Source: Escherichia phage vB_Eco_K-02. From it: a DNA stretch of 44,896 nucleotides. Positions 6,822 through 6,966 of this stretch are shown piece after piece. Numbering within the stretch: the first letter of the stretch is position 1; each line of letters begins with the position of its first letter. The position numbers and the translations under genes were made by a program. The DNA is taken from sequence record PQ436005.1. One strand, given 5' to 3'. Under the pieces are notes generated by a model. It was given only the letters and a program-made list of their open reading frames with translations. It did not search any database and was not told where the DNA came from.

Positions 6822-6966
6822 CAATAGACTTTGACCCTTCCGAAAGCGTCAGCGGAACTACACTCAAGTGCCTAATGGCACGCGTTGCGTTCCCTGCCGC
6901 TCCGCGGTCGCTTGCGATATCTCACAAGCTCAGTGAAGCTTAGCATATTTTCAAGTAAAAGTCAAT
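6822..6966. repeat. conserved ~145-bp intergenic element, copy 1 (second copy 39425..39569)
   Basis: About 75-80% identity to 39425..39569 by manual alignment, in conserved blocks (cccttccgaa, gcgtcagcg, aactacactca, gccgcggtcgcttg, cacaagctcag, aaaagtcaa). Confidence 0.6.

Follow-up and report, generated by a model that had tools for sequence, protein, structure and literature searches.

A predicted two-hairpin RNA element behind a conserved promoter at the head of leftward gene units in Guernseyvirinae phages

Genome layout and occurrence of the two copies

The window analyzed here is the 44,896-nt sequence of Escherichia phage vB_Eco_K-02 (PQ436005.1), a virulent Kagunavirus siphovirus that belongs to the subfamily Guernseyvirinae. 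The stretches compared are 98-100% identical to Escherichia phages vB_EcoS-phiEc3 and vB_Eco_K-01. According to the K-01 annotation, nearly all genes outside the replication module run leftward in three long units: (i) early small genes, holins, endolysin, terminase, portal and head morphogenesis genes, (ii) spanins, scaffold, major capsid, neck and tail terminator genes, and (iii) tail genes. Unit 1 starts in the intergenic region that holds copy 1 of the element described below and extends over ~12 kb, while unit 2 starts in the region of copy 2 and extends over ~7 kb, with a strong internal terminator at 36946-36967, after the capsid gene. In the annotation of the near-identical K-01, these are the two largest intergenic regions of the genome, as the first-pass annotation of this sequence had noticed. 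The ~145-bp repeat that it reported is real: positions 6822-6966 (copy 1) and 39425-39569 (copy 2) align at 79% identity (BLAST E about 1e-26).

Other repeated features of the window include a perfect 77-bp tandem duplication, with two identical copies at 4893-5046, inside a leftward ORF (4753-5169). A family of terminator hairpins, most of them bidirectional and built as AAGGCCCC-loop-GGGGCCTT with A and T runs on either side, marks gene-block boundaries at 14022-14049, 20297-20328, 32868-32901, 40201-40228 and 42132-42165.

The copy 2 region was matched in 180 of the 180 phage records with any match, from phages of Escherichia, Salmonella, Raoultella and Shigella, and its identity was 90-99% in 179 of them. 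Copy 1 was found in only ~40 Kagunaviruses; it is missing in about three quarters of the relatives and far more variable than copy 2. Phages that naturally lack copy 1 show that it can be dispensed with. Chimeric elements in Ec1-ASingh (L050) and L055 suggest recombination between the copies. One GenBank record among those collected, OR594183.1 (vB_EcoM_SHAK7858), is labelled Autographiviridae/Kayfunavirus while its compared stretches match this Kagunavirus at 81-97%, and its taxonomy line appears to be wrong.

The element was not found in 5,426 E. coli genomes. GTDB genomes yielded eight pattern matches, of which one was a mis-binned phage contig, two lay in apparent coding sequence (MoeA-like/CheA-like by eye) and the remaining five had no significant covariance model score. 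The structured RNA element is confined to Guernseyvirinae; at the syntenic place in more remote relatives, the model picks up only weak traces of it (8.5-10.2 bits). In the latter phages (L114, L117-L119, L122 and L123; for instance, L119 1420-1519), the scaffold protein is 75-80% identical, the promoter architecture is kept and a GGAAGGGUC..GUCU tail is kept upstream of the spanin gene. The rest of their leader, with these weak model scores, is a diverged or rearranged homologue.

Conserved promoter and RNA fold

Each copy carries on its minus strand the -35 hexamer TTGACT, an exact pattern match at 6960..6965 in copy 1 and at 39562..39567 in copy 2, followed by an extended -10 element, TG-C-TAAGCT at 6937..6945 and TG-A-TAAGCT at 39539..39547, respectively. 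This site had been described as promoter-like; it proved stronger than described: the window contains just two occurrences of TTGACT-N14-TGn-TAAGCT, one at each copy, against 0.02 matches expected by chance. Both hexamers and the TG are invariant across the Kagunavirus variants, and the spacer keeps its 17 nt throughout although its sequence varies. The Jersey-type promoter reads T(A/T)GACT-N17-TG(C/T)-TACGCT with an unrelated spacer sequence, and that of a third group of phages reads TGGACT-N17-TGA-TAACCT. The consensus over the three subgroups is T(T/A/G)GACT-N17-TGn-TA(A/C)(G/C)CT, and the extended -10 of more distant phages takes the forms TGnTACGCT and TGATAACCT. The site shows the extended -10 signature of sigma-70 promoters: a -35 element, 17 bp of spacer, TGn and a -10 hexamer whose second base is A and whose sixth is T. 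A generic sigma-70 scan missed this promoter because TAAGCT matches only three of the six positions of TATAAT.

Judged from conservation, the pattern has the signature of a promoter under selection. Transcription from it would start ~7 nt past the -10 hexamer, that is, at ~6931/6930 in copy 1 and ~39532/39531 in copy 2. One Kagunavirus RNA-seq paper provides gene-level data only. Of the hairpins proposed earlier, the second one (AAGCT..AGCTT) is present as a DNA palindrome but is probably not a feature of the RNA, because its 5' arm is the -10 hexamer of the promoter. The true 5' hairpin of the RNA is predicted to be GCUUGU..ACAAGC, immediately downstream of the -10.

The predicted RNA element is ~100 nt long and consists of two hairpins, SL1 and SL2, that stand 1-2 nt apart. 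SL1, the 5'-terminal hairpin, is GCUUGUGA-GAUA-UCGCAAGC in copy 1 (6910..6929, minus strand; from MFE folds) and GCUUGU-GAAGUAUGA-ACAAGC in copy 2 (39510..39530, minus strand; from folding and alignment); its helix is 100% paired among the variants, with U.G pairs in several of them. SL2 is a long imperfect hairpin of 65-68 nt at 6840..6907 and 39443..39507 on the minus strand, supported by the covariance model and covariation in copy 1 and by the covariance model in copy 2, where the fold is also the MFE structure. It is modelled as P1 (eight pairs with one bulged C), an isolated pair, P2 (eight pairs and a bulge), an asymmetric internal loop and the variable apical hairpin P3 (five to six pairs; 6868-6881 in copy 1 and 39468-39483 in copy 2, minus strand). 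Both copies end in a conserved 3' tail identified in the alignments, AAGGGUCAAAGUCUAUUG in copy 1 (6822..6839, minus strand), where it is apparently unpaired, and AAGGGCCAUACUCUAUUGC in copy 2 (39424..39442, minus strand).

Variants of the element were gathered from IMG/VR and GenBank. Covariance model R1, built from the relatives, had two matches in the window and no others, each on the minus strand: copy 2 at 39418-39545 (155.5 bits, E 8e-40) and copy 1 at 6815-6943 (110 bits, E 2.7e-27). The apical hairpin that the first-pass annotation saw as changed in sequence and kept in shape was confirmed as such, being GTGCC-TAAT-GGCAC at 6868-6881 and GGAC-TTAC-GTCC at 39469-39482. Further versions of the P3 stem in the relatives are GUGC/GCAC, GGGC/GCCC, CGGAC/GUCCG, CACGU/ACGUG, CACG/CGUG and GGGCG/CGCCC.

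In the Kagunavirus set (31 distinct sequences), 95.4% of the cells at paired positions are paired and seven pairs show double compensatory changes. The covariation score of 0.222 compares with 0.094 for shuffles, none of 500 reaching it, and with at most 0.095 when the pairing partners were slid. Jersey-type variants were located by synteny with the scaffold gene, and their model scores are only 36-43 bits. When they were added, giving 46 distinct variants, 94.8% of the cells were paired and the score rose to 0.292, whereas shuffles gave 0.108 and slid partners did not exceed 0.074. The search of related phages for compensatory changes that had been proposed thus found 15 of 29 pairs doubly changed (0/500 shuffles). 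Since the 46-variant alignment was model-fitted, a recount on a structure-blind MAFFT alignment served as the circularity control; it gave 92.6% paired cells and a score of 0.183 against 0.092. The three best pairs take at least three Watson-Crick states each (A3 columns 72-81 and 70-83 in P3, and 45-108 in P1, with CG, UA and AU). Each subfamily folded alone gave the same two-hairpin shape.

The strand could be told from the wobble pairs. Reading the minus strand, we counted 102 G.U cells versus 7 A.C cells, and 95.4% of cells are paired versus 84.9% on the plus strand, which favors the minus strand; two adjacent G.U pairs are kept in nearly all sequences. A structured RNA on this strand, one of the earlier proposals, is consistent with the strong covariation, the G.U and A.C counts and the conserved minus-strand promoter, and the comparative evidence for its fold is strong. 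A plus-strand RNA ending at the AAGCTC..GAGCTT hairpin and its T run was ruled out by the same counts and by the minus-strand promoter. Long-range pairing between the SL1 loop and the 3' tail, seen as a candidate in copy 2, was rejected, as it is not kept in copy-1-type variants.

Conservation is unevenly spread over the fold. P2 and P3 change freely provided that pairing holds, and three other parts keep their sequence from one subgroup to another, namely the SL2 base (ACCGCGG.GCGG / GC.UUCGG), the internal loop on its 3' strand (GAGUGUAG, replaced by AGCGUA in Jersey-type phages) and the 3' tail (AAGGGCC..UCUAUUG, in which GGAAGGG.C and UCUAUUG are nearly invariant). This pattern suggests that the lower part of the fold is specifically recognized by some macromolecule. 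A specific protein is unlikely to bind at the apex, because both the stems and the loops of P3 (AUUA vs GUAA) differ between the two copies of one genome.

Downstream hairpins and neighboring motifs

A GC-rich hairpin always follows ~70-105 nt beyond SL2, and both such hairpins of the window, noted in the first reading of the sequence, are present. At copy 1 it is GGGUGGGC-UAAA-GCCCACCC (6716..6735, minus strand) and has no U tract. At copy 2 the terminator scan detected GCCCUGC-UUUAAA-GCAGGGC followed by UUUACUUAUC (39339..39358, minus strand), a terminator-like hairpin with a U-rich tract that ends ~10 nt upstream of the ribosome-binding site of the spanin gene; in relatives this hairpin reads GCCCCGC..GCGGGGC, a compensatory change. 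The place is constant and the hairpin is not: copy 2, copy 1 of this window, ST20 and the Golestan group each have a different GC hairpin there. In Jersey-type and third-group leaders the U tract is weak or absent. The copy-1 leader of the Golestan/RP180/Schulenburg phages (L039-L047; for instance, L039 ~300-340) contains a (CTCA)n microsatellite of ~3 to 7 units before the GC hairpin, which is C-rich and G-poor and resembles a Rho-utilisation site.

Between the copy 1 hairpin and the first leftward gene lies a phage promoter-like motif (TTGCAnnCCCCAAnATAATAGGnTACTATTCA; 6612..6657, minus strand), also found there in families I2, I4 and I6; at copy 2 no phage-type promoter motif was found on the minus strand. 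A PHIRE consensus of the motif was reported for fBC-Eco01 (PMC9825357). With its quasi-palindrome GAATAGTnnnCTATTAT, the motif is repeated at 5497-5550 and 6612-6657 on the minus strand and at 10310-10383, 13291-13320, 17052-17081, 30398-30443, 39634-39665 and 41776-41829 on the plus strand. It comes in two arrangements, either TTGACA-N17-TATAGT with the palindrome inside the spacer, or TTGCAnnCCCCAATATAAT, which lacks a -35 and has the palindrome across the start site. These sites look like sigma-70 promoters with an operator for a phage regulator.

The region upstream of copy 2 contains other motifs on the minus strand (39570..39620). The palindrome AACTATTCGAATAGTT abuts the -35 hexamer, and direct and inverted TTATTCC/GGAATAA repeats lie between the divergent promoters. 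Jersey-type and third-group phages conserve both the palindrome and the repeats, which copy 1 lacks. A regulator of late transcription probably binds to them.

In fBC-Eco01, which has no copy 1, another promoter and another long hairpin occupy its place, whereas the spacer, annotated terminator and phage promoter that follow are as in ST20. Because the promoter and hairpin are swapped and what follows is kept, the promoter and its 5' RNA act as a swappable cassette, copied or exchanged between both intergenic regions independently of the spacer and hairpin after it. The alternative leader cassette consists of the promoter motif CTTGACACATNTTTGTATAATG and a different long GC-rich hairpin. It takes the copy-1 position in fBC-Eco01 (L133 950-1060) and the copy-2 (late-operon) position, upstream of the spanin gene, in a fourth phage group (L115, L120 and L129).

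Relation to known RNAs and possible functions

Rfam 15, searched at the gathering threshold over the whole window, gave a single match, int-alpA, away from the element; in E-value mode over both regions it returned chance matches only, none of them on the element. We found no description of the element in the literature. The int-alpA RNA (RF02996) match lies at 30316-30380 on the minus strand (36.6 bits with a gathering score of 35.8, E 2.4e-06 in a local search), at the very 5' end of unit 3 and after an extended -10-like site, TTGGGG-N16-TGcTAGAAT, at ~30385-30413 on the same strand. With this match heading unit 3, all three leftward units begin with structured RNA. It resembles the element in being a structured RNA at the 5' end of a unit in the same phage, but it belongs to another family in which R1 finds no match, and is a neighbor rather than a relative.

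The closest parallel is found in phage HK022, where putL and putR are polymerase-utilization RNAs that act in cis in processive antitermination (PMC9378689). As with the element, two diverged copies are present per genome, with a sigma-70 promoter upstream and terminators downstream, and putL starts at the very 5' end of its transcript. Put RNAs, and the element as predicted, consist of two stem-loops side by side, the second of which includes non-canonical or wobble pairs, and for neither is a dedicated phage protein evident. However, put RNAs are ~70 nt long, compared to ~100 nt here with a far longer second hairpin, and they serve early operons of lambdoid temperate phages, whereas the universal copy of the element precedes a late structural operon in virulent Guernseyvirinae siphoviruses. 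Put RNAs, with their stem-loops arranged in a V, need no factor besides RNA polymerase for read-through of terminators, which is blocked by mutations in the beta' zinc-binding domain to which they bind. Homology was not detected. R1 with filters off scored at best 7.9 bits (E 0.87) in HK022 24000-31000, which includes putL and putR, and not at put; Smith-Waterman comparisons of the element with putL and putR against shuffles gave p values from 0.085 (putL vs copy 2) to 0.89. The 14/18 match of GACCGCGGCGCGGGCAGG to putL stem II, which gave the lowest of these values, was discarded as not significant. The put variants retrieved by a scan of IMG/VR were only near-identical putR copies.

In phage lambda, the constitutive-looking promoter pR' is followed by a ~190-nt leader (6S RNA), the terminator tR' and the lysis and structural genes. 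The arrangement at copy 2 is alike, with a promoter, a predicted ~190-nt leader and a terminator-like hairpin before lysis and structural genes. Q acts via DNA sites at the promoter and a sigma-dependent pause rather than via a covarying RNA fold, and no Q homologue is annotated here. Two further candidates were set aside. By eye, GGCAGGUAAC resembles the ops/RfaH site GGCGGTAG, but its positions covary as RNA pairs and differ between variants. Pairing with the terminator, as in a riboswitch or attenuator, is argued against because the two copies are followed by unrelated spacers and hairpins.

The context of the two copies invites a comparison of function with put: both head long multigene units with a promoter just upstream and stand before unrelated hairpins, of which that of copy 2 is terminator-like and only ~10 nt from the ribosome-binding site of the first late gene. 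The portability of the promoter-RNA cassette, the apical hairpins that differ between the copies, the internal terminator after the capsid gene and the failure to find an N-like or Q-like protein are also in keeping with such a role. By analogy with putL/putR, we tentatively favor a cis-acting, put-like processive antiterminator RNA. E. coli sigma-70 RNA polymerase would start at the extended -10 promoter (TTGACT-N17-TGnTAAGCT), and the first ~100 nt of the leftward transcript would fold into SL1 and then directly into SL2. The nascent RNA would act in cis on its own polymerase, either by itself or together with host factors. The polymerase would turn termination-resistant and pass the GC hairpin or terminator ~70-105 nt past SL2 as well as later terminators, and the read-through would allow expression of the ~12-kb unit behind copy 1 and the ~7-kb unit behind copy 2. 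We give this reading limited confidence, since its functional steps, from transcription at the promoter to antitermination, are inferred and some observations suit its rivals equally well or better. Without a U tract, the copy 1 hairpin is not necessarily a terminator; a phage-type promoter past that hairpin belongs to the copy 1 unit, with upstream read-through not obviously needed; put is undetectable by homology and the element is larger and differently shaped; and the U tracts of Jersey-type and third-group phages are weak or absent.

Several of these features bear on other explanations. A stand-alone sRNA, in which the promoter drives a ~190-215-nt RNA that ends at the GC hairpin and acts either in trans, with targets in the phage or the host, or by protein binding, is somewhat unlikely in our estimate; the conserved unpaired tail (AAGGGCC..GUCUAUUG) would then be its seed or binding site. 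The copy 1 hairpin without a U tract, the separate phage-type promoter beyond it that serves the first gene, and the short promoter-hairpin unit of fBC-Eco01 fit such an sRNA as well as or better than antitermination. The fBC-Eco01 unit carries another RNA, so that a short transcription unit at this place seems general. The promoter-to-hairpin layout resembles a discrete gene in both regions, and duplicated, diverged sRNA genes are common. On the other hand, the spanin-scaffold-capsid operon behind copy 2 has no other recognizable promoter and its hairpin ends ~10 nt from the ribosome-binding site, so read-through must occur there, and the missing U tract at copy 1, like the weak or missing ones in Jersey-type and third-group phages, also speaks against an RNA ending at the hairpin. 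We consider it unlikely that the element serves RNA processing or stability, either with SL2, a ~22-bp irregular duplex, being cut by RNase III as in the T7 early region, or with SL1 and SL2 shielding the 5' end of the long leftward mRNAs against decay that starts from that end. All three subgroups have a hairpin right at the 5' terminus, SL2 forms a long rod that is mostly double-stranded and interrupted by internal loops, and several related copies occur per genome, as is the case for the RNase III sites of T7. Those sites are likewise related irregular hairpins of ~60-70 nt with internal loops, but they lie between genes in polycistronic RNA and not at the transcript start. Moreover, the SL2 base, the internal-loop strand and the 3' tail are conserved beyond the needs of a generic duplex or protective hairpin, and copy 1 is ~240 nt and one promoter away from the first gene. 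The earlier proposals of a structured ncRNA and a long 5' leader both stay live.

A nut-like site, where the RNA would recruit a phage (N-like) or host (Nus/rrn-type) protein complex to the polymerase, shares the contextual evidence of the antitermination reading, but we find it rather doubtful. Like lambda nutL and nutR with N, the element is a paired cis-acting RNA heading two operons and combines a hairpin with a conserved single-stranded box, and its sequence-conserved tail recalls the hairpin-plus-box of nut and rrn leaders. However, matches to the boxA consensus (CGCUCUUA / UGCUCUUUAACAA, up to three mismatches) in the window are at the chance level (11 vs 12.3 expected), none falls inside the element, and a boxA site was dropped as a candidate. 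A boxA-like ACUCUUUAA (UACUCUUUAAAGA) at 6692-6704 on the minus strand, matching rrn boxA in 10 of 13 positions, lies ~11 nt past the copy 1 GC hairpin; its position is suggestive though statistically at the chance level. An N-like or Q-like protein was found neither in the K-01 annotation nor in a Pfam scan of 10 neighboring proteins; many small proteins of the phage have no assigned function. The apical hairpins of the two copies also differ within one genome, in contrast to the nearly identical boxB of nutL and nutR. The origin-like element considered in the first-pass annotation, whose transcript would prime or activate replication or whose single-stranded DNA would form a hairpin signal, now appears very improbable. 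Copy 1 adjoins the primase-helicase module at the cumulative GC-skew minimum, and G.T pairs are tolerated in single-stranded DNA hairpins as well. Nevertheless, the universal copy 2 sits among structural genes, copy 1 is the one missing in most relatives, the skew minimum coincides with the switch of gene strand, and selection on the promoter and on G.U pairs points to an RNA product. Finally, an ATG-initiated ORF covers copy 2 (39409-39519, minus strand) and is annotated in two records, fBC-Eco01 (38 aa) and K-01 (36 aa), but there is next to no chance that it is a small protein-coding gene. Among the 46 variants, its reading frame, start and stop are not conserved: 13 lack the start codon and many others are frameshifted or stopped early, with indels of 1, 2 and 4 nt. 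The copy 1 ORF differs in start and stop, and substitutions track base pairing rather than codons.

Lacking an Rfam match and put homology, the element appears to be a new RNA family of a known general kind, a phage 5' leader or ncRNA. Guernseyvirinae (Kagunavirus and Jerseyvirus) are among the phages most often isolated for E. coli and Salmonella therapy and biocontrol. The element, unannotated or mis-annotated as a small ORF in the inspected records, marks the promoter and leader of the main capsid operon. There is a modest chance that it will prove to found a second family of factor-free antiterminator RNAs, one of independent evolutionary origin and without precedent outside lambdoid temperate phages. 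Such an RNA would drive the late structural operon of virulent E. coli and Salmonella siphoviruses and, together with its promoter, form a portable cassette open to copying into other operons. If it were an RNA-only antiterminator, the put mechanism would be no curiosity of HK022-like phages and the element would offer a compact portable part for synthetic operons. If it were an sRNA or a processing site, it would still be a new RNA family with good support, whose two natural paralogues and existing compensatory variants lend themselves to experiments.
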